Origin: Escherichia phage fBC-Eco01
Length of the DNA stretch: 43,466 nucleotides
Sequence record: OM272052.1
Direction: 5' to 3' (one strand)
In this document: piece by piece, positions 1,871 to 38,989 of the stretch
Position numbering within the stretch: position 1 is the stretch's first letter
Layout of the letters: the number at the start of each line of letters is the position of its first letter
Notes under the pieces: generated by a model
The model's input: only the letters and a program-made list of their open reading frames with translations
The model's database searches: none
Told to the model about the DNA's origin: nothing
Translations under genes and position numbers: made by a program

Positions 1871-3340
1871 ATGTTAACTATGAACGGTCAGAATCAGGGT
1901 GTTAAGACAAAACACCGGGAATGGCTGCATCACTTCGATAAATGGCAGAAGGTACGCCACGCGCTGGAAGGCGACCTTATTCGCTATCTGCGCAACGTCG
2001 GGAAGAACGAACCTGACCCGGTCTACGCAGCCCAGCGCCAGGAAGAATACGAGAACGGCGCTATCTGCTACAACTTCACCAAACGTACCCTTGCCGGGAT
2101 GGTTGGGTCGGTGATGCGCAAGGACCCAGAGCAGATTATTCCGCCTGAACTGGAGTACCTGTTACGCAATGCCGATGGTTCTGGTGTCGGGCTGTGGCAG
2201 CACGCGCAGGATACGTTAATGGAGATTGACTCGGTGGGTCGTGGTGGGTTGCTGGTGGACGCGCCGGAGACAGCCGCGGCAACAGCAGCAGAACAGAACG
2301 CCGGATTATTAAACCCTGTCATCGCATTCTACACCGCAGAGAACATCATCAACTGGCGACTGACCCGAGTCGGTTCAGTTAACCGTGTGACAATGGTTGT
2401 ATTGCGTGAGGTATGGGAATACACAGAACCCGGTGCAGAGTTCGAAACAAAGTTCGGCGAGCAATACCGCGTTCTCGATTTGATTGACGGGCGCTACCGT
2501 CAGCGCATTTACCGCTTCGACGCCGAAGGTGGCGCACAGGATGAAGTAATCGAGATATTCCCGGAACTAGGCGAACAGTTACGCGGTAAAATCCCGTTCA
2601 CGTTCATCGGAGCGAGCAACAATGACGCTACTATCGATGATGCACCATTGCTGCCGTTGGCCGAGCTTAATATCGGGCATTTCCGCAACAGCGCAGACAA
2701 TGAAGAGTCCAGCTTCGTTGTAGGCCAGCCCACTCTGTTCATCGCCCCTGGCGGGAATATGAGCATGGAGCAATGGAAAGAAGCCAACCCTCACGGCGTG
2801 CGCATGGGGTCGCGTTCTGGCCACAACATTGGCGAAGGTGGCAATGCGTTTCTGGTTCAGGCTGGGGAGAACAACCTCGCCAAGCAGAACATGCTGGATA
2901 AAGAGAATCAGGCCATCCAGATTGGCGCACAGCTTATCACCCAGACGCAGCAAATCACCGCTGAATCGGCACGCCTGCAACGCGGTGCGGATACGTCAGT
3001 TATGGCAACAATCGCACGTAACGTAAGTATGGCGTATACCGATGCGTTGCGCTGGGTGGCGGCGATGCTAGGGCTGCGTGAAGGCACAGAGATTGAGTTC
3101 AAGCTAAACATGGAATTCTTCCTGCAACCGATGACCGCTCAGGACCGTGCACAGTGGATGGCAGACATTAACGCCGGTTTGCTGCCAGTAACTGCTTACT
3201 ACGCTGCGTTACGCAAGGCGGGTGTAACCGACTGGACTGACGAAGACATCCAGAACGCTATTGAGGATGCACCACTGCCGTTGGGCGCTGCTGCTCAGGT
3301 AACGGGGGAGATTCCTCAGTCGGCGCAGCAACAGGAGTAA
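1871..3340 (+). CDS. portal protein
   Basis: 489 aa ORF immediately after terminase with RBS AAGAGGA; size and position typical of portal; followed by hairpin terminator. Confidence 0.75.
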   Translation: MLTMNGQNQGVKTKHREWLHHFDKWQKVRHALEGDLIRYLRNVGKNEPDPVYAAQRQEEYENGAICYNFTKRTLAGMVGSVMRKDPEQIIPPELEYLLRNADGSGVGLWQHAQDTLMEIDSVGRGGLLVDAPETAAATAAEQNAGLLNPVIAFYTAENIINWRLTRVGSVNRVTMVVLREVWEYTEPGAEFETKFGEQYRVLDLIDGRYRQRIYRFDAEGGAQDEVIEIFPELGEQLRGKIPFTFIGASNNDATIDDAPLLPLAELNIGHFRNSADNEESSFVVGQPTLFIAPGGNMSMEQWKEANPHGVRMGSRSGHNIGEGGNAFLVQAGENNLAKQNMLDKENQAIQIGAQLITQTQQITAESARLQRGADTSVMATIARNVSMAYTDALRWVAAMLGLREGTEIEFKLNMEFFLQPMTAQDRAQWMADINAGLLPVTAYYAALRKAGVTDWTDEDIQNAIEDAPLPLGAAAQVTGEIPQSAQQQE

Positions 3341-3346
3341 AGAAAA

Positions 3347-3376
3347 AGGCCCCACTACGGGGCCTTAGTTTTATTT
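3347..3376. terminator. bidirectional intrinsic terminator
   Basis: GGCCCC-ACTAC-GGGGCC hairpin flanked by A-run upstream and T-run downstream; lies between convergent portal and antisense gene. Confidence 0.6.
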
Positions 3377-3892
3377 AAATCTTGCAGGCATTAACACCAT
3401 AAAGGCCGTGTTTGAAAATTGTATTTTGCATCCTCTGGTTTGGTCCTGGAAATCGAAACGAGCAATTTCATTTTTGTATGCCTTAGAAATCTTGTACGCG
3501 TCTGCCAAATAGCGCAGAGTGAACCCTATACTATCGACAACACCCGGTGTGATGTGCGCCACGCGTCTCCAGTCAGGAAAGTTTCCTTCTACAACATCTA
3601 CCGGAAGTGTACATATAAGCGCACGATTATCGTCATAGAAAGATACACTGCCGTTGTCGTGGTTTACCTCCGCGTAGTTAAATTTAGAAGGCTCTCTCCC
3701 TTTGATGTCTATGAGAGTCCCTTTCTCAACGTTGGTCTTCACATTGTCGCAGAACAATCTATGACCGTCCGTAGACACTATCAATCCTTCAGGGTCTATG
3801 TAAAAAGCGTTCAAATAGTAGCGAACATCATTTTTAGCCCTGCATATTTTCGCCCCTACATACGCAGGGAAAGTAATTACTGTAGTAACCAT
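3371..3892 (-). CDS. hypothetical protein (antisense accessory gene, moron)
   Basis: 173 aa ORF on opposite strand to flanking head genes; RBS AGGAGA 6 nt upstream of ATG; own promoter copy and terminator; no family recognised. Confidence 0.6.
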   Translation of the reverse strand: MVTTVITFPAYVGAKICRAKNDVRYYLNAFYIDPEGLIVSTDGHRLFCDNVKTNVEKGTLIDIKGREPSKFNYAEVNHDNGSVSFYDDNRALICTLPVDVVEGNFPDWRRVAHITPGVVDSIGFTLRYLADAYKISKAYKNEIARFDFQDQTRGCKIQFSNTAFMVLMPARFK

Positions 3893-3919
3893 TTTGCGTC
3901 TCCTGTTTAAGTTAACTGA

Positions 3920-3948
3920 ATAGTACCCTATTATATTGGTGTCTGCAA
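3920..3948 (-). promoter_or_regulatory. conserved promoter element copy A (TTGCAG-N17-TACTAT, minus-directed)
   Basis: minus-strand reading TTGCAGACACCAATATAATAGGGTACTATTCAG; matches copies at 6064, 15132, 37795. Confidence 0.45.
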
Positions 3949-3992
3949 ATATTATTTTTATACGTTACACTGGCGGTACTATAGGAGGGCAT

Positions 3993-5036
3993 ATGAGCTT
4001 ACTTACATCTCTAATCAGTCACCAGATATGGCTGCAACGCGCCGCATCCGGTGAAGTGAAAGACCTTACGCCGTTTCTTCAGGAGATGCGGGACGAAATC
4101 AAACGGCAGGTGCTGTTATTCGGCGATGACGGGCGAAGCACCGCGCGACTGAATAAATTGTTACGTGACCTCGAAGAAGCACTAATGGGACTTACAGGCG
4201 ACTGGCAAACAAAGCTGACAGAAGACCTTAAGGAACTGGCGGCGTATGAGGCTGAGTGGAACGTAAAAACGCTGACCACCAACGTAAACGCGGAATTTGT
4301 TACACCTACCGCTGAGCAGGTATGGGCCGCCGCCGAGTTTCAACCGCTCTCATTAAGCGACAAGCCGGTTGATTTCACTAAGCTGATGTCGGGATGGGGT
4401 GAAACCGAAGTAGCACGTCTCGTAACCGGCGTTAAGATGGGCTTTGTGCAAGGTCAGACAACACGGCAGATTGTTAAGAATGTTGTTGGCGCTGGTGGGC
4501 TGGCGGACATATCCGAGCGTAACGCAGCTACGGTAATCCGCACCGCGCTGTCTCACGTATCCAACGAAGCCCGCAACGAGACGTACCGACAGAACGACGA
4601 CATCATCGAGAAGTACGAGTGGGTGTCAACGCTAGACAGCCGTACCAGTACGATTTGTAGGGCCAGAGACGGAATGACGTGGGAAATCGGTAAGGGGCCG
4701 ATGCCCCCGGCCCATTTTGGGTGCCGAAGTACCACGGCACCTGTAATCAGTTCAGAGTTCGACTTCCTCGATAAAGGTGCAAAACGTGCGGCTAAGGGCG
4801 CGGACGGAGGTACTCAGGTAAGCGCAGACACCACTTACTACGAGTTCCTGAAACAACAACCGGCGTGGTTCGTGGACGAAGCACTCGGGCCGACCCGCGG
4901 TAAGATTTTCCGCAACAGCGGTATATCGCCGGAAGAGTTTCGCGTAATATCTGTAGATGGTTTCGGGCGTCCGCTTACTATTAAAGAGATGGCGGAACTC
5001 GATAAACGTGTTGCTGATTATCTGAAAGGGGAATAA
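3993..5036 (+). CDS. head morphogenesis protein (phage Mu F / SPP1 gp7-like minor capsid protein)
   Basis: RBS AGGAGGG before ATG 3993; C-terminal motif TICRARDG...HFGCRS typical of the Mu F family. Confidence 0.8.
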   Translation: MSLLTSLISHQIWLQRAASGEVKDLTPFLQEMRDEIKRQVLLFGDDGRSTARLNKLLRDLEEALMGLTGDWQTKLTEDLKELAAYEAEWNVKTLTTNVNAEFVTPTAEQVWAAAEFQPLSLSDKPVDFTKLMSGWGETEVARLVTGVKMGFVQGQTTRQIVKNVVGAGGLADISERNAATVIRTALSHVSNEARNETYRQNDDIIEKYEWVSTLDSRTSTICRARDGMTWEIGKGPMPPAHFGCRSTTAPVISSEFDFLDKGAKRAAKGADGGTQVSADTTYYEFLKQQPAWFVDEALGPTRGKIFRNSGISPEEFRVISVDGFGRPLTIKEMAELDKRVADYLKGE

Positions 5037-5497: not shown

Positions 5498-5501
5498 TAA
5501 A

Positions 5502-5528
5502 AGGCCCCGTTAAGGGGCTTTATTTTTA
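5502..5528 (+). terminator. intrinsic terminator
   Basis: GGCCCC-GTTAA-GGGGC hairpin followed by TTTATTTTTAT. Confidence 0.5.
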
Positions 5529-5593
5529 TATGAACATCGCGGTGATAACCGCAGCCGATACCCACAAAACAACATAAAACATCACACTATTTG

Positions 5594-5938
5594 TCATTTG
5601 CATTTCTCGTCGTATGTTTGTTGTAACTGCGACAGACGATTACCGGCTGTCATCTCGTCCATAGAAGGCCCAGCGCCTGTGTCCATAAAGAACAGCGGAA
5701 CAAACAGGAATGCGCCTGTAACACCGAGTACAACGTTAGTACCTATTTGCTTATTAACACGGTGCGTAGCGTTGGCTTGAGCTTGTTTTGTCGTGGCGAT
5801 TCTCGATAGTAACTGATTACATGTTGCCGTTGTATCCCCTGCCTGATAAACCTGTAAAGCTGGGTCTGGCAACGACCTTACGCAACCACTCAAACAAACG
5901 GCTACAACACCTGCTACTGCTAATTTAATATATTTCAT
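5594..5938 (-). CDS. putative lipoprotein (accessory)
   Basis: 114 aa; N-terminal signal with lipobox LSGC (MKYIKLAVAGVVAVCLSGC); hydrophobic segment near C-terminus; antisense to head genes. Confidence 0.6.
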   Translation of the reverse strand: MKYIKLAVAGVVAVCLSGCVRSLPDPALQVYQAGDTTATCNQLLSRIATTKQAQANATHRVNKQIGTNVVLGVTGAFLFVPLFFMDTGAGPSMDEMTAGNRLSQLQQTYDEKCK

Positions 5939-6036
5939 AGTTCGCCATTACCCGTGTCAATGTCACCAATACCACTACAAGCCCAAAGAAACATCACCGC
6001 ATCAACTGCAATTACTACTGAAATAACGACTAACAT
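5935..6036 (-). CDS. small hydrophobic peptide (33 aa), translationally coupled to lipoprotein
   Basis: ATG preceded by strong RBS GAGGAGG at 5 nt; stop TGA overlaps lipoprotein ATG (ATGA); sequence MLVVISVVIAVDAVMFLWACSG... Confidence 0.4.
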   Translation of the reverse strand: MLVVISVVIAVDAVMFLWACSGIGDIDTGNGEL

Positions 6037-6063
6037 GACGGCCTCCTCGGTTCGATAGAATGA

Positions 6064-6092
6064 ATAGTACCCTATTATATTGGGGTGCGCAA
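6064..6092 (-). promoter_or_regulatory. conserved promoter element copy B (TTGCGC-N17-TACTAT, minus-directed)
   Basis: minus-strand reading TTGCGCACCCCAATATAATAGGGTACTATTCA about 27 nt upstream of the small peptide ATG. Confidence 0.5.
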
Positions 6093-6134
6093 ACTATTTG
6101 TTTATGTATTCCAGTTATTCCACTCAATTGTAAA

Positions 6135-13118: not shown

Positions 13119-13122
13119 AACT

Positions 13123-13147
13123 AAGGCCCCGAAAGGGGCCTTTTTCT
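13123..13147. terminator. bidirectional intrinsic terminator
   Basis: AGGCCCC-GAAA-GGGGCCT hairpin with A-run upstream and T-run downstream; ends both the + tail transcript and the - accessory operon. Confidence 0.6.
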
Positions 13148-13320
13148 TATTCCTTCAATTGCATAGGGTAGAAGTTAACGAGTTCTCCTTTATCCCGAAG
13201 CCGTGAATATTCATCTAACGCATCTTCCCGGCTACTTACAGCATAGATATCATTCCACTCGTCCCATTCTTCGTCATATACACGGATTACGTATATTGTT
13301 TTCATTACATTCTCACTCAT
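13147..13320 (-). CDS. hypothetical protein (accessory operon gene 5)
   Basis: internal ATG 13320 or 13305 preferred over track start 13362 to avoid a 50-nt overlap; acidic, W-rich small protein. Confidence 0.4.
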   Translation of the reverse strand: MSENVMKTIYVIRVYDEEWDEWNDIYAVSSREDALDEYSRLRDKGELVNFYPMQLKE

Positions 13321-13543
13321 CAATGTTGCTTCGATACTCCCGTAACTTCTCCAGACTTTCAATTGCTTCCGCTAAGTCGGTTCCGGTGTCCTTGTGCCCG
13401 CGAAGGCCCATACACAACAGCTTCTTCAATGCGTGCTGTAGCGCCGGGTCCCGGATATCGAAGGCGCGGAGCACATCATAAACATCTACTGTCATAGTGC
13501 TGCCGTGGGTATTTGTCATTGTGCGGTTGTATTTATTTGTCAC
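13313..13543 (-). CDS. hypothetical protein (accessory operon gene 4)
   Basis: 76 aa; GTG start with weak RBS; motif VDVYDVLRAF...ALKKLL; family not identified. Confidence 0.45.
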   Translation of the reverse strand: MTNKYNRTMTNTHGSTMTVDVYDVLRAFDIRDPALQHALKKLLCMGLRGHKDTGTDLAEAIESLEKLREYRSNIDE

Positions 13544-13733
13544 TGTTAACTCTCTTAAATCGGGCTATGCCTGACTCGTTAATGCTGCCTATTTCAAAGA
13601 AGCTGCGATATTTAGGCGAATACATTCTTACGTCGCCGTTCTCTAGGGCGACCCCTTCATATACAGCGCCTACTTCGAATCCATTTTTCTCCGCGTACGG
13701 ACTCACATCGGTGCATTCATACATATCTTTCAT
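13533..13733 (-). CDS. hypothetical protein (accessory operon gene 3)
   Basis: 66 aa; ATG overlaps upstream stop (translational coupling); RBS GGAG. Confidence 0.5.
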   Translation of the reverse strand: MKDMYECTDVSPYAEKNGFEVGAVYEGVALENGDVRMYSPKYRSFFEIGSINESGIARFKRVNSDK

Positions 13734-14860
13734 CCCAGCATCTCCGGTGAAATAGTTAAACGTGCGACCTCGCCATATTCGGCACTATAGGTAATTACAT
13801 TTGCGCTACGGCCTGACATCCATCCACCGCGCGAGGCGTAGGCGTCTTTAGCCGCCAGGGTGCGGTGTTGCTCAACAATCATGTTACGGCTTTCTACAAT
13901 CTTCTGGTGGTGCAGATGGCCTACGTGGGCGTAGCTGTAAACACTCTCGCCGAACGCTTTACGGAACTTGGCAATCATTACCGGTTCGATAGCGTCGAAT
14001 CGCGCCTTATGCCCGTGGTGAAAGAACAGCGTAGTTTTGCCGTGTTGGACCATCTTGTAAACATCCGGCGACGTATCGACGAACACACGCGGCTCATTGT
14101 CGTACAGCGTACTAAACATCTCAGCTAACCAAATCATTCCGCTTTCGTCGTGGTTCCCTTGCACGATAAGCAAGCGAACAGATTTATGCTTAACCAGCGC
14201 CATGTCAACAACACGTCGTACCATACGAATCATGTAGCGCACCAGTTTCTGATAGCGAGTATCGGCGTCCAATACATGACCACTCGCTGGCGTAACCGCA
14301 TCCAGACTATCGAAGTGCGCGAAGTCACCCAGCAGGTTAATAACCCCAGTTCCTGCATCTGGTGCTTTCTGAAACGCCGCATCGAACCATCGGGAGAACA
14401 GGTCTTCCGCAATCTTCATATCCCAGTCGTCGCCGCTCTCGTCAGCCCAGGCCAGCATACCAAGATGGAAATCAGATACCGTGTACAGATTGAGTAGTTT
14501 ATCGTCGCGTTTGGCTCGAGTCGCTTTAACCGGCGCAACTGGCGTAATCTCCGACTTCATTCCTTCGATCACGGCTTTCATTAACTCGACCTGACGTTCG
14601 GCGTCGGTGTCTGTCTTAACCCATTGCAACTTAGTGTTGCCGAACTCGTCCACCAGTGACGACGTTCCTTTAATTTTGTAGCCGTCCGGGACAAGATGGC
14701 TAACGTCACGACCGTGACCTACGCCTTTCTTCGCCAGCTTCGCTTTACGGATACGAATAACTCGGTCTGAGATGCCGTATTTACGGGATATGTCGATAAT
14801 CTTTGTTCCGGCGTTCAATTCTTCCTGTAACTGTTCGTCGGTTATTTTCTTCCGGGCCAT
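13730..14860 (-). CDS. HTH domain - calcineurin-like metallophosphoesterase fusion protein
   Basis: 376 aa; N-terminal helix-turn-helix-like segment (IIDISRKYGISDRVIRIRKAK); phosphoesterase motifs in order DFH, GDFAHFD, GNHDE, GH, GHLHH; RBS GAGGAAG. Confidence 0.75.
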   Translation of the reverse strand: MARKKITDEQLQEELNAGTKIIDISRKYGISDRVIRIRKAKLAKKGVGHGRDVSHLVPDGYKIKGTSSLVDEFGNTKLQWVKTDTDAERQVELMKAVIEGMKSEITPVAPVKATRAKRDDKLLNLYTVSDFHLGMLAWADESGDDWDMKIAEDLFSRWFDAAFQKAPDAGTGVINLLGDFAHFDSLDAVTPASGHVLDADTRYQKLVRYMIRMVRRVVDMALVKHKSVRLLIVQGNHDESGMIWLAEMFSTLYDNEPRVFVDTSPDVYKMVQHGKTTLFFHHGHKARFDAIEPVMIAKFRKAFGESVYSYAHVGHLHHQKIVESRNMIVEQHRTLAAKDAYASRGGWMSGRSANVITYSAEYGEVARLTISPEMLG

Positions 14861-14898
14861 GCTTACTTCCTCGTGTTTAGGATTTGTCCTATACTAGC

Positions 14899-15090
14899 TC
14901 ACTTCTCTTTGACATTCGAGTTGCAAGCCCAGATTAAAATAAATACCCACGGCAGCAGAACCCAGCCGAGAAACAGATTAGCCATGAATATCGCCAGTTT
15001 CGCTTTATGTCCGCGCATATGGGCCACTAAAAACGGGATAAAATAAACTAAAACGATAATGATTAAGAAGAACATAGTAATACCTGTCAT
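14899..15090 (-). CDS. superinfection immunity-like small membrane protein (Imm-like)
   Basis: 63 aa from ATG 15090 with RBS AGGAG; two hydrophobic helices with RGHKAK...NLFLGW...PW motif as I recall it for the Imm-like family. Confidence 0.5.
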   Translation of the reverse strand: MTGITMFFLIIIVLVYFIPFLVAHMRGHKAKLAIFMANLFLGWVLLPWVFILIWACNSNVKEK

Positions 15091-15131
15091 GGTGTAGCTC
15101 CTGTTTGAGTTAACATTGTTGGTGTAAGTGA

Positions 15132-15160
15132 ATAGTATCCTATTATGTTGGGGTGCGCAA
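15132..15160 (-). promoter_or_regulatory. conserved promoter element copy C (TTGCGC-N17-TACTAT, minus-directed)
   Basis: minus-strand reading TTGCGCACCCCAACATAATAGGATACTATTCAC, 28 nt identical to copy D. Confidence 0.5.
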
Positions 15161-15268
15161 GTAATGTGATAGAATAATTTTGCGCCTAGTGTCGCACACG
15201 AAAAGCGGGTGGTTCCCGTCTGGCGCATTTACCATTAACCTGTAACCTCTTAACCAAAGGATTAAAGA

Positions 15269-27825: not shown

Positions 27826-27953
27826 TCCAGCACCCACAGATAAATTGCGATGAACATACCTAATACGGCTACCATCATGCCGTATTGGCCCTCGTGACAA
27901 TAGACACCGGCGGCGAATCCCGCCAGTACCGCGATAATCAGTTTACTTAGCAT
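27822..27953 (-). CDS. small hydrophobic peptide (43 aa)
   Basis: ATG 27953 overlapping the DNA polymerase 3' end; two hydrophobic stretches. Confidence 0.3.
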   Translation of the reverse strand: MLSKLIIAVLAGFAAGVYCHEGQYGMMVAVLGMFIAIYLWVLE

Positions 27954-30141
27954 AACGCTTCATCTCCGCGCCTTCCGCTACAAGAGGGAACCCCTCCGCC
28001 CACTCTGGCAACGCACACATTAATTTTTCCAGTTCAGGCACCGTGTAATCCGGCGTATCTGGAGTTTCACATACCAGTTCATCGTGTACCGAAAGCACGA
28101 TGGGATACCCGCCACCCTCAACATTAATCATCGCATACGCAAGTAAATCACGGCACAGCGCCTGAACAATGTTTTCGCAGGCCTTGCCGCCGTGTGTGTA
28201 CAGGGTAGTCCATTGACGGGTTAACTGGTTTTCGCCCTGATACTTGATTCGCACATTCGTATTTACCCGCCCGTCTTCGTCTGTTTCCTTTGTCACACTA
28301 ACGCCGATTCCCGGATACGAGAGGATGCGACCCGACGGCAACTCCATACACAACCACCAGCCAGGAACCTTCCTGCCCGACGAATCAAATTCTACGGTAC
28401 GCCATATGCGGATAGCCCTTTCACCATTCCGGCGCAAGTGTGCTCCCGCCCAAAATTCACGACCAGGATTTCTTACCGCGGCTAAAATACCGTCTTTGAG
28501 GTCGCGCCAGAACGCTACTGTTTCCGGGTGTGACTCGCGCCACATACGCTTGATTGCATCGCAGGTGCGCCACACTTTCTTGTCCAGAATATACGACGGT
28601 CGGTCGTCCTTTTCACCTGGATGCGGGGGGCGCTTGGCTTCCTGGATGCGCGCCCACTCGTACCCGCGTGCAGTGGCCGACCAGATATGGTCCGGGAATG
28701 TACCGTCCATTGTTTTAGCCATCTCAATAAGGTCGAGGCCTAAGTTTTTGGCGAACGTAACGAATGCTCCGACGCCCCCCTCGTAGCCGAGGCCCAGTTC
28801 GCATGCTTTGCCTATCTGTCTGATTTCCTTAAAGTTTTTCTTAATATCGTCAGGGTCCATGCCAAACATCTTACCTGCGGTTACGCAATAAATATCCAGT
28901 CCGGCACGGAACGTATCGAGCGCGGTTTCTTCTCCTGCTAACCACGCTAACCCACGACCTTCGACGTTAGAGTAATCAGCTACGACAAACTTGTGCCCGG
29001 CTTCCGGTATGATGCAGCTACGGACCGTCGATGCCGTCAGCTTGGCTACGTCAAATCGGCGGTGAGCACGACCCTTAAGTAACGCTGAAATGCCTTTATC
29101 CAGTTCATCATCGTGATAGTAACCGCGCGCCAGGTTCTGCGGCTGAAAGCCTTTACCCGCCCATCGCAGAGTGCGTTTTGCCCCGCCGTACTGCAAGCAA
29201 CCACGACGGCGGTCGTCCGACGAGCGACCCAGCAGCAGCGGGTTATATTTCGTCGATGCTGTAGACGCGGCCCCGAGGCGCATTTCGATAATTGTGCGCG
29301 CGTCGTCAGGTAAATCATCGTCCGCCAACAAGTCATTCAGCGTTGACTTCTGCGCGTTGTGGATGCGGTGCGCAGGGGCGAGTTCACGCAAAATAGGCAG
29401 AAAGTCCTTACCGGTAAGTGAACCGCCGTATTTGCGTTGGGCTTCTTCCTGTAACTGTGCTTTGTGTTTCTCCACGGCTTCAATCGCGGCTTCCGCCAGT
29501 GCGACGTCAACCTTAAACCCGCGGTCGTTGATTAACTGGTCCAGTTCCAGTACACGGTCCTCAAACTCGGAGTTACCCCAACGCGGCAGCTTATGGAAGA
29601 CTTCACGCATTGCGGTGATGTCGCTCACGGCGTACTTGATGAACAGCGCCCACTCGTCAGGGTGTGTTTCTGCGGTGTAGCGGCGGATTTTGTAGTTCTT
29701 CGGTGTAGGTTTAGAGAAACGCTGAATCAGCGCCTTGCCGCGTTTATCTTTCGCATTGTCAGCGGACACGCCCAGCACTTCGCACAACGCATCAAGTGAC
29801 CCCGGCAGCGCGTGACGAAACGCCCAAATCATTGTATCAATGGTGTTGCTTACCGGAATATCAAAGTCCCAACAGTGCTTCATGATGAGCCTGTCGAACA
29901 TTAAAAAGTTATGGCCTACGATTTTCATACGTCCGCGCATAACATTACGGAGTGCAACGCGGAGGCTTATCGGCATTACTGGTTCGGAAGTGCAATCCCA
30001 TACTTCTACAGGACCGTCATCAACGGCATATGTACAAATTATAACCTCGGTCGTTGGATGCTCCGCGTACGCGTACGACCCGACTTTCTTTAAGTCTGCT
30101 TCGGAGAATGTCTCAGTATCCAGGTACAATAAACTAGTCAT
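27943..30141 (-). CDS. DNA polymerase, family A (Pol I-like) with 3'-5' exonuclease domain
   Basis: 732 aa; exonuclease motif LYLDTETFS; polymerase motifs DYSNVEGR, RQIGKACELGLGYEGG and VHDELV. Confidence 0.9.
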   Translation of the reverse strand: MTSLLYLDTETFSEADLKKVGSYAYAEHPTTEVIICTYAVDDGPVEVWDCTSEPVMPISLRVALRNVMRGRMKIVGHNFLMFDRLIMKHCWDFDIPVSNTIDTMIWAFRHALPGSLDALCEVLGVSADNAKDKRGKALIQRFSKPTPKNYKIRRYTAETHPDEWALFIKYAVSDITAMREVFHKLPRWGNSEFEDRVLELDQLINDRGFKVDVALAEAAIEAVEKHKAQLQEEAQRKYGGSLTGKDFLPILRELAPAHRIHNAQKSTLNDLLADDDLPDDARTIIEMRLGAASTASTKYNPLLLGRSSDDRRRGCLQYGGAKRTLRWAGKGFQPQNLARGYYHDDELDKGISALLKGRAHRRFDVAKLTASTVRSCIIPEAGHKFVVADYSNVEGRGLAWLAGEETALDTFRAGLDIYCVTAGKMFGMDPDDIKKNFKEIRQIGKACELGLGYEGGVGAFVTFAKNLGLDLIEMAKTMDGTFPDHIWSATARGYEWARIQEAKRPPHPGEKDDRPSYILDKKVWRTCDAIKRMWRESHPETVAFWRDLKDGILAAVRNPGREFWAGAHLRRNGERAIRIWRTVEFDSSGRKVPGWWLCMELPSGRILSYPGIGVSVTKETDEDGRVNTNVRIKYQGENQLTRQWTTLYTHGGKACENIVQALCRDLLAYAMINVEGGGYPIVLSVHDELVCETPDTPDYTVPELEKLMCALPEWAEGFPLVAEGAEMKRYAK

Positions 30142-30607
30142 GGCAATAAAATTCCTTGTGCAGTTTTTCTCTTAATTTCTTTACGGCGCTTTCTGCTTCT
30201 TCAAGAGTTCCGTAGCTACCAGCGTTATAGCTTTTGTAGTTAAAATGCACACGCCCGTAAAATCGGTTGCCGTTTTTAACCACTCCCTTAACTCCGGTTC
30301 TAGCTCCCTTATTTTTAGCGTTTCGCACATTATCAGCGGTTGTTGCTTTCCTTAGGTTAGAAATCCTATTGTCTAACCTGTCACGGTTTATATGGTCAAG
30401 AGGCCCATCGGGCCATTCACCGTACTCGAAAAACCAAGCAAGCCTGTGGGCCATGTAATATCTACCCATATAAGGTATGCGCCAGTATCCACTACTATTG
30501 ATGCATCCAGCGATGTCTCCGGGTTTTCCTCGTCTGTACGTAGGTTGTATCCATGTGAATACCCCTGTCTCTCGGTCGTAGCTTAGAAAATCTTTTATAT
30601 GTTCCAT
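30134..30607 (-). CDS. HNH homing endonuclease with AP2-like DNA-binding domain
   Basis: ATG 30607 with RBS GGAG; motifs AHRLAW, HINRDRLDNRISNLR; C-terminal GVKGV...NRFYGRV AP2-like segment. Confidence 0.7.
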   Translation of the reverse strand: MEHIKDFLSYDRETGVFTWIQPTYRRGKPGDIAGCINSSGYWRIPYMGRYYMAHRLAWFFEYGEWPDGPLDHINRDRLDNRISNLRKATTADNVRNAKNKGARTGVKGVVKNGNRFYGRVHFNYKSYNAGSYGTLEEAESAVKKLREKLHKEFYCHD

Positions 30608-30623
30608 TCTGACTCCGGTAAAA

Positions 30624-30641
30624 AGGCCCAATGATGGGCCT
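30624..30641 (-). terminator. intrinsic terminator (minus-directed) between SSB-like gene and HNH gene
   Basis: AGGCCCA-ATGA-TGGGCCT hairpin followed on the minus strand by TTTTACC. Confidence 0.5.
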
Positions 30642-30661
30642 TAGTTAAATTGATTCAGATA

Positions 30662-31288
30662 TTAGCGGCGGCGACGTTCGCGGCGCGGAGCTTCATCTTC
30701 TTCGTCATCTTCCAGGTCGTCGACGCTTGCCGCGACTTTAGAACCGCCAAACGCTTTACCTTCGCCGACGTATTTAATCGCCAGCAGATTAACACCGAGA
30801 ACTTTGTATTTCTGGCTGAACCAGATTTCAATGCTTACGTTAGCGACGCAGCCGCTGTAAACCTGTTCACCTTCAATCTGCTCGCCGTCTACATTGAAGT
30901 CCTGCTCTACCTGAGTCTCGCCTTTTTTAGAGGTTACAATCAGTGGCTGTTTCTGAGCTTTCGCTTTGAAGTAGAAGCCTTCCGGGAAGTCTTCAAACGG
31001 ATTGTCGCGCTCGGCAATGTCCTTAATCGCGCATTTATCCATGTGCTTACCTTCGCCGTAGTTGGACTTCATCCATTTCTCGGCGGCGGCTGCACCTAAC
31101 GCTTCTTCAACTACAGCGTAAACAGTGTCGTAGAGCGCATCGATTTGAGCATGGTCAGACGGCAGGATGATAGTCGCGCTGTACTGGCCTTTAGTGATTG
31201 AGCCATCATCGTTTTCACGGTCTTTTTCACGTTCGAATACGTTAACCCAAGCAGTGTTTACTTTACGCAGATTTAATTTCAGTCCCAT
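30662..31288 (-). CDS. DUF2815-like putative ssDNA-binding protein
   Basis: 208 aa; strongly acidic C-terminal tail DDLEDDEEDE as in SSBs; genomic context next to DNA polymerase and DUF2800 nuclease. Confidence 0.55.
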   Translation of the reverse strand: MGLKLNLRKVNTAWVNVFEREKDRENDDGSITKGQYSATIILPSDHAQIDALYDTVYAVVEEALGAAAAEKWMKSNYGEGKHMDKCAIKDIAERDNPFEDFPEGFYFKAKAQKQPLIVTSKKGETQVEQDFNVDGEQIEGEQVYSGCVANVSIEIWFSQKYKVLGVNLLAIKYVGEGKAFGGSKVAASVDDLEDDEEDEAPRRERRRR

Positions 31289-31341
31289 TTGATTTCTCGC
31301 TTTTCAGTTTACTCCGGGGAGCTGCCCGGCCAGTGATTAGA

Positions 31342-31370
31342 ACTATAATAGCTAACTATTCAGGTGTCAA
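31342..31370 (-). promoter_or_regulatory. sigma70 consensus promoter (TTGACA-N17-TATAGT, minus-directed)
   Basis: minus-strand reading TTGACACCTGAATAGTTAGCTATTATAGT upstream of the SSB-like gene. Confidence 0.5.
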
Positions 31371-32913: not shown

Positions 32914-33351
32914 TTATTCTCGAAATATCCAAGACCTATGAACGAGCTTTCTACTCTTATATATATATGCCCGCCACAACTTACGAGTTTTGCACCAGCT
33001 TACACCAGTAACGCCGCTGGTGTTGTTAGATGCTAAAGACATATTCTTGTGATTTCCGGCGCTACTCACCTTCCGCAGATTGGTAATTCGATTGTTTCTC
33101 CTGTCGTGGTCAATATGGTCTATTTGCTCTCCGGGCTTTAGTAAATCATCTGGGTTACAAAGGTCCCATATAACACGATGCGCTTTACGCACAACGCCGA
33201 GCACCTTAACTTGAGTGTAGCCATGAACGTCGTTGGACCCCGCCTCCTGTCCAGCCTTAACTTTGTCGGAAGGTGATATCTTCCAATACAATTTCCCGGT
33301 ATCAGGGTCGTAGTCAAAAACTTCATGCCAATTCATACCCTGTTCTCCCAC
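32914..33351 (-). CDS. HNH homing endonuclease
   Basis: 145 aa; motifs YDPDTGKLYW, AHRVIW, IDHIDHDRRNNRITNLR. Confidence 0.7.
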   Translation of the reverse strand: MGEQGMNWHEVFDYDPDTGKLYWKISPSDKVKAGQEAGSNDVHGYTQVKVLGVVRKAHRVIWDLCNPDDLLKPGEQIDHIDHDRRNNRITNLRKVSSAGNHKNMSLASNNTSGVTGVSWCKTRKLWRAYIYKSRKLVHRSWIFRE

Positions 33352-33648: not shown

Positions 33649-34146
33649 TTATTCTTCTTCGAAATACTTGTTCTTGATTGCCGTCAGGCGTTCCAGGTAC
33701 TCGGCCAGGTCTTCGTCCTTAATCGCGGCAATCTTCATCTTCTTACCGGTGAACTCTTCCAGCAGTTCATCAGACTCGTCACACGCGGCATCGCTCGGGC
33801 CTTCGTTAATTGCATCGTCGATAGCCTGAATCTGGTCACGCAGAGATTGGTAATCTACTTCTTTTTTCTCTTCTTCCGGCTCTGGCGTCGGTTCCTCTGC
33901 TTTAGCTTTACGCGTCTTGCGTTTCGGCTTCTCTTCCTCCGCAGGTTTAGTGTCAACGACGTCTTCACCTTCAACCGTGATTTCTTTTGCTTCTTCGGCG
34001 CACTCGCCCGCCGCTTTTTTGGTATACACTACTGTCTCTACTTCCAGCGGCGCATCGGCATGAACAACTTGTTTTGCACTGTTCGCAGCAATCAGTTCAT
34101 GCGCAACTACGAAACGTTCCAGTAATTTTAAGAATTGGTCTAACAT
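33649..34146 (-). CDS. hypothetical acidic protein with central KR-rich patch
   Basis: 165 aa; RBS GAGGAGA at 7 nt; first gene behind strong promoter. Confidence 0.5.
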   Translation of the reverse strand: MLDQFLKLLERFVVAHELIAANSAKQVVHADAPLEVETVVYTKKAAGECAEEAKEITVEGEDVVDTKPAEEEKPKRKTRKAKAEEPTPEPEEEKKEVDYQSLRDQIQAIDDAINEGPSDAACDESDELLEEFTGKKMKIAAIKDEDLAEYLERLTAIKNKYFEEE

Positions 34147-34177
34147 TTGTTTCTCTCCTCTCGTTTTGTATGGACTA

Positions 34178-34206
34178 ACTATAATAGCGAACTACTCACA
34201 TGTCAA
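34178..34206 (-). promoter_or_regulatory. sigma70 consensus promoter (TTGACA-N17-TATAGT, minus-directed)
   Basis: minus-strand reading TTGACATGTGAGTAGTTCGCTATTATAGT in the divergent region next to the HTH gene. Confidence 0.5.
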
Positions 34207-37794: not shown

Positions 37795-37823
37795 TTGCAC
37801 ACCCCAACATAATAGGATACTAT
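37795..37823 (+). promoter_or_regulatory. conserved promoter element copy D (TTGCAC-N17-TACTAT, plus-directed)
   Basis: TTGCACACCCCAACATAATAGGATACTATTCAC upstream of the rightward small-gene cluster. Confidence 0.5.
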
Positions 37824-38960: not shown

Positions 38961-38989
38961 TTGCACGCTGGGATAGAATAGACTACTAT
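38961..38989 (+). promoter_or_regulatory. promoter element variant (TTGCAC-N17-TACTAT, plus-directed)
   Basis: TTGCACGCTGGGATAGAATAGACTACTATTCATC; same -35/-10 and downstream TTCA as copies A-D, divergent spacer. Confidence 0.5.

Follow-up and report, generated by a model that had tools for sequence, protein, structure and literature searches.

The window analysed here is the 43,466-nucleotide stretch of DNA from Escherichia phage fBC-Eco01 (record OM272052.1), a Kagunavirus-like coliphage (Guernseyvirinae), and our subject is a minus-strand gene in it, at 3371-3892, which begins with ATG and encodes a protein of 173 amino acids (aa). By comparison with the β sliding clamp of Escherichia coli, DnaN, we consider it established that this protein, here called the mini-clamp, is a ring-incompetent fragment of the β-clamp, composed of DnaN domain II and the C-terminal half of domain III, and that the pocket for proteins with a clamp-binding motif (CBM) is its only strongly selected surface. 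Because the pocket has been kept and the parts of the ring have been lost, the protein probably captures clamp-binding proteins rather than working as a clamp. The sequence-only reading of this DNA had found a single antisense gene for a 173-aa product in the region 3371-3948, as we do, and had assigned the product to an unknown family with no recognisable domain, which we do not uphold.

Identity and fold of the protein

The mini-clamp matches PHROG 3007 over residues 13-172 (E = 3.6e-36), and a 'processivity factor' PHROG matches it at 3.7e-9. The only DnaN match in Pfam is to the central domain, PF02767, with 17.2 bits, under the cut-off of 27, and there is none to PF00712 or PF02768; the dnaN model TIGR00663 scores 20.3 bits, under its cut-off of 137.65. 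The best matches of a phmmer search against the PDB are to E. coli DnaN and fall into two pieces, residues 16-116 aligning with DnaN 144-252 (domain II) and residues 117-171 with DnaN 312-366 (the second half of domain III). A hidden Markov model (HMM) built from 59 homologues (alignment A1) scores E. coli DnaN at 104.9 bits, and the match is again split into these two pieces. The DnaN reference sequence was verified at 20 numbered residues and against the PDB alignments.

The AlphaFold2 model of the protein (pLDDT 95.5, pTM 0.91) has three units of the β-α-β-β-β type, the second of which lacks its helix. When the PDB was searched with this model by Foldseek, the best 50 matches were all beta clamps, and ranks 1-23 were DnaN of E. 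coli or Klebsiella (E ~4e-8, TMq 0.62-0.69), with alignments of ~255 columns, as expected when ~60-80 target residues are skipped. Almost the entire modelled chain superposes rigidly on a single β protomer, and this rigid-body fit suggests that domain II and the kept half of domain III lie in their native juxtaposition, the interface between them being the site of the partner-binding pocket. The predicted structure therefore has the DNA clamp fold, whereas the three-domain organization of a DnaN (~366 aa, scoring above the curated thresholds) is not found, since just DnaN 144-252 and 312-366 are covered. The protein instead has the properties of a family of stand-alone phage mini-clamps, for which neither Pfam nor NCBIfam has a curated model, namely a length of ~140-250 aa, an end-to-end profile match and the motifs DVRYYLN, TDGHR, FPDWRRV and MPxR.

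Homology to DnaN is already on record through the annotators of relatives, whose GenBank labels read 'DNA polymerase III sliding clamp' or, in phage Ivi, 'beta clamp domain-containing protein'; the record of phage Sciku cites HHpred. With these labels, the PHROG 3007 match, the DnaN sequence matches in the PDB and the beta-clamp fold, the claim of an unknown family has to be given up, and the kind of structure-based search that the sequence-only reading had itself proposed as a check put beta clamps at the top of the PDB matches. PHROG 3007 carries the label of a RusA-like Holliday junction resolvase. A RusA signal (PF05866) was not found in Pfam, NCBIfam or fold searches, and we reject the resolvase assignment in view of the clamp fold and the beta clamps among the top PDB matches. 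On both the sequence comparisons and the model, the name 'RusA-like' is erroneous, and it has passed into the annotation of many phage records, such as those of SHAK7693, Bas77, SO-1, Skate and Akira. PADLOC gave no match for the mini-clamp.

A retained pocket and a lost ring

In DnaN, subsite I of the hydrophobic pocket comprises R152, L155, T172, G174, H175, R176, L177, P242, R246, V247, V360 and M362, subsite II comprises H175, N320, Y323, V344, M362, P363, M364 and R365, and the dimer interface involves I78, R103, F106, I272, L273, E298 and E304 (PMC11139829). The mini-clamp is identical to E. coli DnaN at 15 of the 18 pocket positions, with all 12 of subsite I among them, compared with 39 of the 134 positions aligned elsewhere (Fisher p = 1.4e-5). 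Equivalent residues include L177 and L46, P242 and P106, V247 and V111, M362 and M168, and P363 and P169, with DnaN given first in each pair; Y244 of DnaN is replaced by W in the mini-clamp without exception. Six columns are invariant among the 59 homologues (T41, D42, G43, R45, P106 and W108) and ten more are at least 90% conserved (R24, Y26, H44, D107, R109, R110, Y128, M168, P169 and R171), and all of them map to the pocket or to residues directly adjacent to it. For ten pocket residues listed by an independent crystallographic source (PMC3716654), mean conservation is 0.87, compared with 0.44 for the rest of the protein (p = 8e-6). The pocket is retained in every genomic context that we looked at.

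The ring has fared otherwise. Domain I and DnaN ~253-311, the first half of domain III, are absent, and with them both of the segments that bear the interface, so that none of the seven dimer-interface residues (0/7) has a counterpart in the mini-clamp. The inner, DNA-facing helix of subdomain II-b is also deleted in the subfamily to which the protein of the window belongs. Because domain I and the N-terminal half of domain III are missing, and both faces of the dimer interface with them, ring closure or DNA encirclement of the DnaN type is impossible for a protein of this architecture. Judging from the head-to-tail topology of DnaN, the pieces that have been kept (II-a, II-b and III-b) would form a contiguous quarter-arc centred on the pocket.

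A true clamp might be built by a new oligomeric route, in which four protomers of 1.5 domains, or another homo-oligomer, would surround DNA as a ring or C-shaped arc. Three units in each of four protomers would give the 12 β-α-β-β-β units of all known clamps, if geometry alone is considered, and the model preserves the β-arc fold and its curvature, with two free sheet edges that could pair in principle. The exposed edges would differ, however, one being intradomain and the other interdomain in terms of DnaN topology, so that head-to-tail closure would need a non-native interface; moreover, the prediction has coil in place of the strand that should open the third unit, which would leave no pairing-ready edge. 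The deletion of the inner helix that faces DNA and the lack of any recognisable clamp loader encoded by the phage argue in the same direction, and we consider such an assembly very improbable.

Longer members of the family (~200-225 aa; P0044, P0046, P0056, P0058, P0063 and P0068 in alignment A1) carry a tail of 10-30 residues directly after MPxR, with the motif [LVR]-P-x-[WF]-hydrophobic (LPTWAF, LPSWI, VPAFM and RPGWL). No such tail is present in the protein of the window. Where it occurs, it might occupy the pocket as an internal pseudo-ligand or serve as a motif for binding a partner.

The gene and its signals

The mini-clamp gene lies between the portal gene (1871-3340, plus strand; PHROG 145, DUF4055) and the head-morphogenesis gene (3993-5036; Mu F-like, PHROG 241). 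A Shine-Dalgarno sequence, AGGAG, can be read at 3900-3904 on the minus strand, 7 nt upstream of the ATG. That the open reading frame (ORF) is a real gene follows from the PHROG 3007 match, 72 database homologues and a ratio of nonsynonymous to synonymous substitution rates (dN/dS) below 1; between divergent Kagunavirus orthologues the ratio is 0.14-0.18, by which measure the gene is under purifying selection. A second ORF (3419-3910, plus strand, 163 aa, TTG start) was dismissed as a shadow ORF, as it lies wholly opposite the selected and homology-backed minus-strand gene; no search was made of it.

A GC-rich, terminator-like hairpin at 3346-3366, positive on both strands in a terminator scan, has 8-9 stem pairs, six of them GC, and a run of T on either side. 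It begins 5 nt past the stop codon of the portal gene and 4 nt past that of the antisense gene, and is thus common to both. The G+C content is 0.41-0.46 over 3300-4050, compared with 0.52-0.57 in the flanks.

On the other side of the gene, a promoter-like element, TTGCAG-N17-TACTAT ('copy A'), lies at 3920-3948 on the minus strand, with its -35-like hexamer at 3948-3943 and its -10-like hexamer at 3925-3920; the end coordinate 3948 of the sequence-only reading coincides exactly with the outer limit of the -35-like hexamer. The element is under the threshold of a generic sigma-70 scan, which reported no promoter ahead of the gene, and it was recovered only by repeat and k-mer analysis. The 29-nt pattern TTGCRS-N17-TACTAT, which was derived post hoc from the copies, has five exact matches in the window, at 3920-3948, 6064-6092 and 15132-15160 on the minus strand and at 37795-37823 and 38961-38989 on the plus strand, compared with 0.02 expected from shuffles. 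All five copies are followed on the same strand, 25-45 nt downstream, by a Shine-Dalgarno sequence and a start codon. The excess of copies shows non-randomness, not promoter function, and use of the 3920-3948 copy as a promoter is something that we infer from sequence.

Agreement of the element with the sigma-70 consensus is limited to 7-8 of 12 positions and it contains a small palindrome, AATAG-N4-CTATT, so a phage factor may be required or bound. A related repeat occurs at 31341-31370 and 34177-34206, with the core CTATTATAG in common. On the minus strand, the repeat with the core CTATTATAG contains a near-consensus sigma-70 promoter, TTGACA-17-TATAGT, and precedes the gene for a single-stranded DNA-binding protein (SSB; 30665-31288) and the gene at 33652-34146. 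Two classes of promoter thus seem to be built on one palindromic core, AATAG-N4-CTATT, which suggests a site for a common regulator.

The hairpin and the element of the mini-clamp gene belong to two repeat families defined by repeat analysis. Family D1 (terminator) is found at 3344-3375, 5499-5530, 13120-13151 and 30620-30651, and family D2 (promoter, 45 nt) at 3917-3961, 6061-6105 and 15129-15173 and, reversed, near 37.8 kb.

A mobile cassette

Comparison with phage Ivi by blastn delimits a mobile cassette of 622 bp, 3344-3965, that consists of terminator, mini-clamp gene and promoter element. Its identity to Ivi is 97.1%, compared with 90.1-90.3% for the flanking portal and head genes, and its G+C content is 0.418, compared with 0.504 for the whole window. 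The cassette starts within the D1 repeat at 3344-3375 and finishes at the D2 repeat at 3917-3961. Since both cargo sites in the head region (3344-3965 and 5499-6105) are bracketed by D1 and D2, homologous recombination at these common repeats would be an obvious route for the swapping of cargo.

In close relatives the position of the gene varies. The region 3000-4400 is matched by 167 phage records and is 95% identical to Escherichia phage vB_EcoM_SHAK7693. The gene occupies the same site in SHAK7693 and Sciku. In Raoultella phage RP180 and in Ivi the site is empty and the portal gene stands directly beside the head-morphogenesis gene, while other cargo is found at the same junction in K-02 (an antisense 94-aa ORF) and in EcoPhCCP1 (an antisense 217-aa 'amidase'). 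Ivi and XY2 carry the mini-clamp at a second site, between a Hoc-like gene and the spanins, and the protein of Ivi is 100% identical to that of the window; in Salmonella phage SE1 a third site, flanked by the spanins and the scaffold gene, is occupied by a copy with 67% identity. The gene is thus found in fewer than half of the close relatives and, overall, at three sites in the head module. A search of 5,426 complete E. coli genomes gave no match to the cassette DNA, for which reason recent capture from the host or a prophage was ruled out.

By sequence-level criteria (insertion, its own promoter-like element and terminator, and deviant G+C content), the conclusion that the gene is a moron is well supported. 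Most of the sequence-only reading is borne out on this point: the gene has a terminator shared with the portal gene and a putative promoter of its own, the region is richer in A+T than its neighbours, and the portal and head-morphogenesis genes are adjacent where the insertion is lacking. That reading would have been contradicted by the presence of the gene in all relatives with a role in head assembly; instead, relatives have the site empty or differently filled, or have the same gene elsewhere. The anatomy of the cassette shows how a lineage of virulent phages moves accessory genes about among fixed sites, several cargo sites being bracketed by the same repeats.

Two further antisense units were noted in the window. 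The second cassette (5499-6105, cargo 5531-6060 on the minus strand), also bracketed by D1 and D2, is where Ivi and XY2 have the mini-clamp. It encodes a hydrophobic peptide of 33 aa (start near 6036), followed by a predicted lipoprotein of 114 aa (5594-5938) with a signal peptide and a ...LSGC lipobox, which belongs to PHROG 13472 (unknown function) and may be a superinfection-exclusion protein. The third unit (13120-15178), in the region of the tail genes, has minus-strand genes at 13733-14860 and 14902-15081, the promoter-like element at 15132-15160, and an end near the D1-type hairpin at 13120-13151; it encodes a 60-aa superinfection immunity protein of the Imm type (PF14373, E = 8e-14) and a 376-aa protein with weak similarity to calcineurin-like phosphoesterases. 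The closest relative, SHAK7693 (OR594180.1), is classified in its record under Autographiviridae; Studiervirinae; Kayfunavirus and bears a myovirus name ('EcoM'), but its genome is collinear with those of Kagunavirus siphophages, and its taxonomy line looks wrong.

Distribution and genomic contexts

By tblastn, the mini-clamp was found in 237 of 50,697 phage records, and in 233 of these the match covers at least 80% of its length. The hosts of the carriers include Salmonella, Escherichia, Klebsiella, Vibrio, Proteus, Acinetobacter and Burkholderia. An exhaustive profile search of 1.84 billion cluster representatives yielded at least 201, from clusters defined at 50% identity, with E<=1e-30. 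The protein of the window itself heads the matches, the first 150 of which are all 141-246 aa long and, save for the fragments P0039, P0015 and P0029, each aligns in a single, nearly end-to-end stretch. Many of the predicted viral structures of 163-250 aa in BFVD resemble our model, with TM 0.75-0.88. Because the family is selected, widespread and conserved in length, these comparisons describe neither a one-off truncation nor a pseudogene but a large, selected and essentially phage-specific family.

The gene could still be viewed as a decaying, functionless fragment of a former full-length phage dnaN, as it is a truncated homologue that falls under the Pfam (17.2 against 27 bits) and TIGRFAM (20.3 against 137.65) thresholds. 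The dN/dS of 0.14-0.18, the architecture and length kept in the 201 or more clusters and in 233 of 237 phage records, the gene's own Shine-Dalgarno sequence, promoter element and terminator, and the higher conservation of the cassette (~97%) than of the backbone (~90%) all speak against decay, and the data on selection and distribution effectively refute it.

The contexts of the gene are diverse. Podovirus contigs with a P22-type portal, Prim-Pol, DUF5906 and PolA carry it beside DUF932 among the small genes at the start of an operon that is presumed to be early because it diverges from the structural genes, and on another contig it heads an operon with a DnaA-C-like gene. In a prophage of Serratia fonticola the gene comes first after a CI-like repressor, and the operon continues with a DUF2800/PDDEXK exonuclease, an Enc34-type SSB, PolA, a methylase and SNF2; this replication module is also found in the window. 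There, the genes for PolA (27946-30141), SSB and the DUF2800 exonuclease are interspersed with two minus-strand genes for homing-type endonucleases of the HNH_3 class (30137-30631 and 32917-33351).

Two unrelated types of phage have the mini-clamp gene inside the head module in antisense orientation, in one of them between the portal and Mu-F genes, and in Dhillonvirus EP23 it is likewise antisense among head genes. Tad2 is an anti-Thoeris protein. The unrelated phage with the mini-clamp between portal and Mu-F has a Tad2-like gene (PF11195; 9932-10177) between terminase and portal, that is, another gene of the counter-defence type inside a structural module. In the T1-like phages Bas77 and Klebsiella 6991 the mini-clamp ends an antisense cassette of anti-restriction, ParB-HTH (helix-turn-helix) and C5-methylase genes. 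Bas77 encodes a primase, a helicase, an AAA_24 protein, an SSB and exonuclease VIII. In these two T1-like phages neither annotation nor Pfam indicates a DNA polymerase, although Bas77 has one protein of 526 aa without a Pfam match. The Bas77 mini-clamp keeps 16 of the 18 pocket residues.

A collection of plasmids contained no mini-clamps and nothing in a leading-region context, only longer DnaN paralogues, for which reason the idea of a homologue serving plasmid establishment was dropped. One such paralogue (425 aa) is encoded by Klebsiella plasmid p33Kpn22-2 (37625-38902), beside DinG, Dam and RdgC, and another (267 aa, probably with two domains) by Burkholderia gladioli plasmid pls1, beside an ATPase. 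Both plasmids are large conjugative ones of the MOBH class, and their paralogues are distinct from the phage mini-clamps.

Possible function

We favour the reading, at a probability of roughly 0.45, that the mini-clamp is a pocket-only mimic of the clamp that acts off DNA, binding CBM proteins in competition with the host clamp for host takeover or counter-defence. The cassette would move between the head-module sites of Guernseyvirinae phages by recombination at the shared promoter and terminator repeats. The free pocket would bind proteins with a QL[SD]LF-like CBM off DNA, and the mini-clamp would compete with DNA-loaded host β-clamps for these partners, as a 'CBM sponge' or hub-pocket mimic. 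Candidate partners are the clamp-loader subunit δ, Pol III α or ε, Hda, MutS/MutL and the translesion polymerases; a CBM-bearing protein of a defence system or rival element is a further candidate. Peptide binding, competition, target identity and promoter use are all steps that we infer. There are precedents for such an effect. A monomeric β variant does not support processive synthesis by Pol III, yet binds δ ~50-fold more tightly than the ring does (PMC11139829), and overexpression of MuC of phage Mu, which has two CBMs, causes over-initiation, disturbed clamp-partner stoichiometry being lethal in E. coli (PMC12867686). In the light of these two cases, a competitor or sponge for clamp partners would be the simplest reading of a protein that is all pocket.

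Several observations weigh against the sponge. The pocket is the most conserved part of DnaN anyway and the homologues were collected by similarity, so that part of the enrichment described above is expected; the informative point is that the pocket has been retained at such a level in a protein that shed 55% of its parent. Expression timing is ambiguous, since the copies of the promoter-like element at 37.8 and 39.0 kb precede small unknown ORFs that run on into the holin and endolysin genes, and the class of promoter may be early or late. A defence system acting on the clamp, or a link between clamp mimics and defence, was not found in the full-text literature that was searched, and an association with defence is suggested only by gene neighbourhood. 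The pocket is, furthermore, equally intact in Bas77 and Klebsiella 6991. Without a recognisable DNA polymerase, these phages presumably need the Pol III and clamp loader of the host, and a general poison of replication therefore cannot be the role of the whole family. The target of the mini-clamp must be a selective one, or be limited by dosage, unless the mini-clamp recruits its partners instead of sequestering them. Hda, MutS/MutL and the translesion polymerases would be selective targets compatible with the T1-like carriers, as would a protein with a CBM from a defence system or mobile element; a recruiting role would be compatible with them as well.

The same objection applies to the idea of a poison subunit, which would bind host β monomers, or the intermediate of loader and open clamp, by surfaces other than the pocket and would thereby block ring closure. 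Since the mini-clamp has none of the residues that stabilise the β dimer interface and selection acts most strongly on the pocket rather than along the edges, we think this very improbable.

A recruiting role leads to the remaining alternative, a replication accessory or adaptor whose pocket would attach a polymerase or an enzyme of DNA repair to the phage replisome; the partner could be PolA of the phage or Pol III, Pol I or ligase of the host, and the mini-clamp would serve either as a non-ring cofactor like herpesvirus UL42 or as a bridge to the phage helicase, primase or SSB. The position of the Serratia prophage gene at the head of the exonuclease-SSB-PolA-SNF2 operon, which counts against the sponge, fits this role, and the same module is present in the window; several further carriers encode PolA and a DUF5906 helicase-primase. 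The sliding-clamp label of the GenBank annotators points the same way, as does an isoelectric point (pI) of 8.3, compared with 5.25 for DnaN, which would lessen repulsion by DNA, and T1-like phages without a recognisable polymerase would be accommodated if the partner were host Pol III. On the other hand, the gene is optional among close relatives and is placed, and moves, as a cassette, and the herpesvirus-type factors resemble the mini-clamp weakly. The phage PolA, moreover, has no CBM: a scan of the proteins of the window with CBM-like regular expressions gave three pentamer and three hexamer matches, none of them terminal and none in PolA, and the pentamer count is at or below chance, a rough estimate being ~6-7 chance matches for the pentamer pattern alone. 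An accessory role is thus unlikely on balance, but it is the alternative that we take most seriously.

Extended from the window to the family, the hypothesis of a pocket mimic would be that phages repeatedly deploy a ring-incompetent copy of the β-clamp pocket as a soluble hub-pocket mimic, which soaks up or redirects CBM proteins and spreads as a cassette of promoter, gene and terminator. We offer this broader proposition tentatively, at somewhat worse than even odds. Bacterial replication and repair have their central docking hub in the β-clamp pocket, which is also an antibiotic target. If the hypothesis is true, a natural pocket-only protein of ~20 kDa would be a new viral way to interfere with this hub and a ready-made tool to titrate clamp partners in vivo, and would define a class of takeover or counter-defence effectors that imitate the docking site of the hub instead of its ligands. 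Hundreds of phage records bear the label 'DNA polymerase III sliding clamp' or 'RusA-like resolvase', and the architecture described here indicates that neither label fits the capabilities of the protein. A genome paper repeats the textbook sliding-clamp function for the gene (PMC9825357). In the full-text literature, the coverage of which is incomplete, we found no account of truncated or mini β-clamps in phages, of a pocket-only architecture of 1.5 domains, of the loss of ring elements or of the behaviour of the cassette.

Comparison with known systems

E. coli DnaN (PDB 1MMI and 7AZK) is a 366-aa protein that forms a ring, whereas the 173-aa mini-clamp lacks domain I and residues ~253-311 and has a pI of 8.3 instead of 5.25. 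The mini-clamp is also phage-borne, optional and mobile, unlike its cellular counterpart. It can also be compared with forms of β that have the pocket without the normal dimeric ring. One of them, β*, said to have been described by Skaliter et al. in 1996, is reportedly the internally initiated, UV-induced C-terminal two-thirds of DnaN. Another is the monomeric variant I272A/L273A, which still binds partners (PMC11139829). These forms are laboratory-made or host-derived, however, and keep all three domains or, in β*, all of domains II and III, whereas the mini-clamp is smaller and natural. The herpesvirus factors UL42, UL44, PF-8 and BMRF1 have the clamp fold and bind a polymerase peptide in the equivalent groove, but form no closed homotrimeric or dimeric ring, and provide the analogy for an accessory role.

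Among phage proteins directed at the host clamp system, gp8 of N4 acts against the clamp-loader subunit δ. Twort Gp168 (PMC8565349), N4 gp8 and MuC of phage Mu (PMC12867686) address the same host hub as the mini-clamp would. In the case of MuC, disturbed occupancy of the clamp by its partners is lethal via interference with the regulatory inactivation of DnaA (RIDA) (PMC12867686). These proteins bind the clamp or its loader, or carry CBMs, and have no homology to the mini-clamp, which is their mirror image in that it copies the pocket of the hub.

The concept of the moron is due to Hendrix. Classical morons of the lambda and HK97 type are single genes with their own promoter and terminator, inserted between genes that are adjacent in relatives, deviant in composition and antisense to the late operon, and the mini-clamp gene resembles them in all these respects. 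It differs from them in that it belongs to a group of virulent phages and in that its cargo sites, with their common promoter and terminator repeats, exchange their contents.

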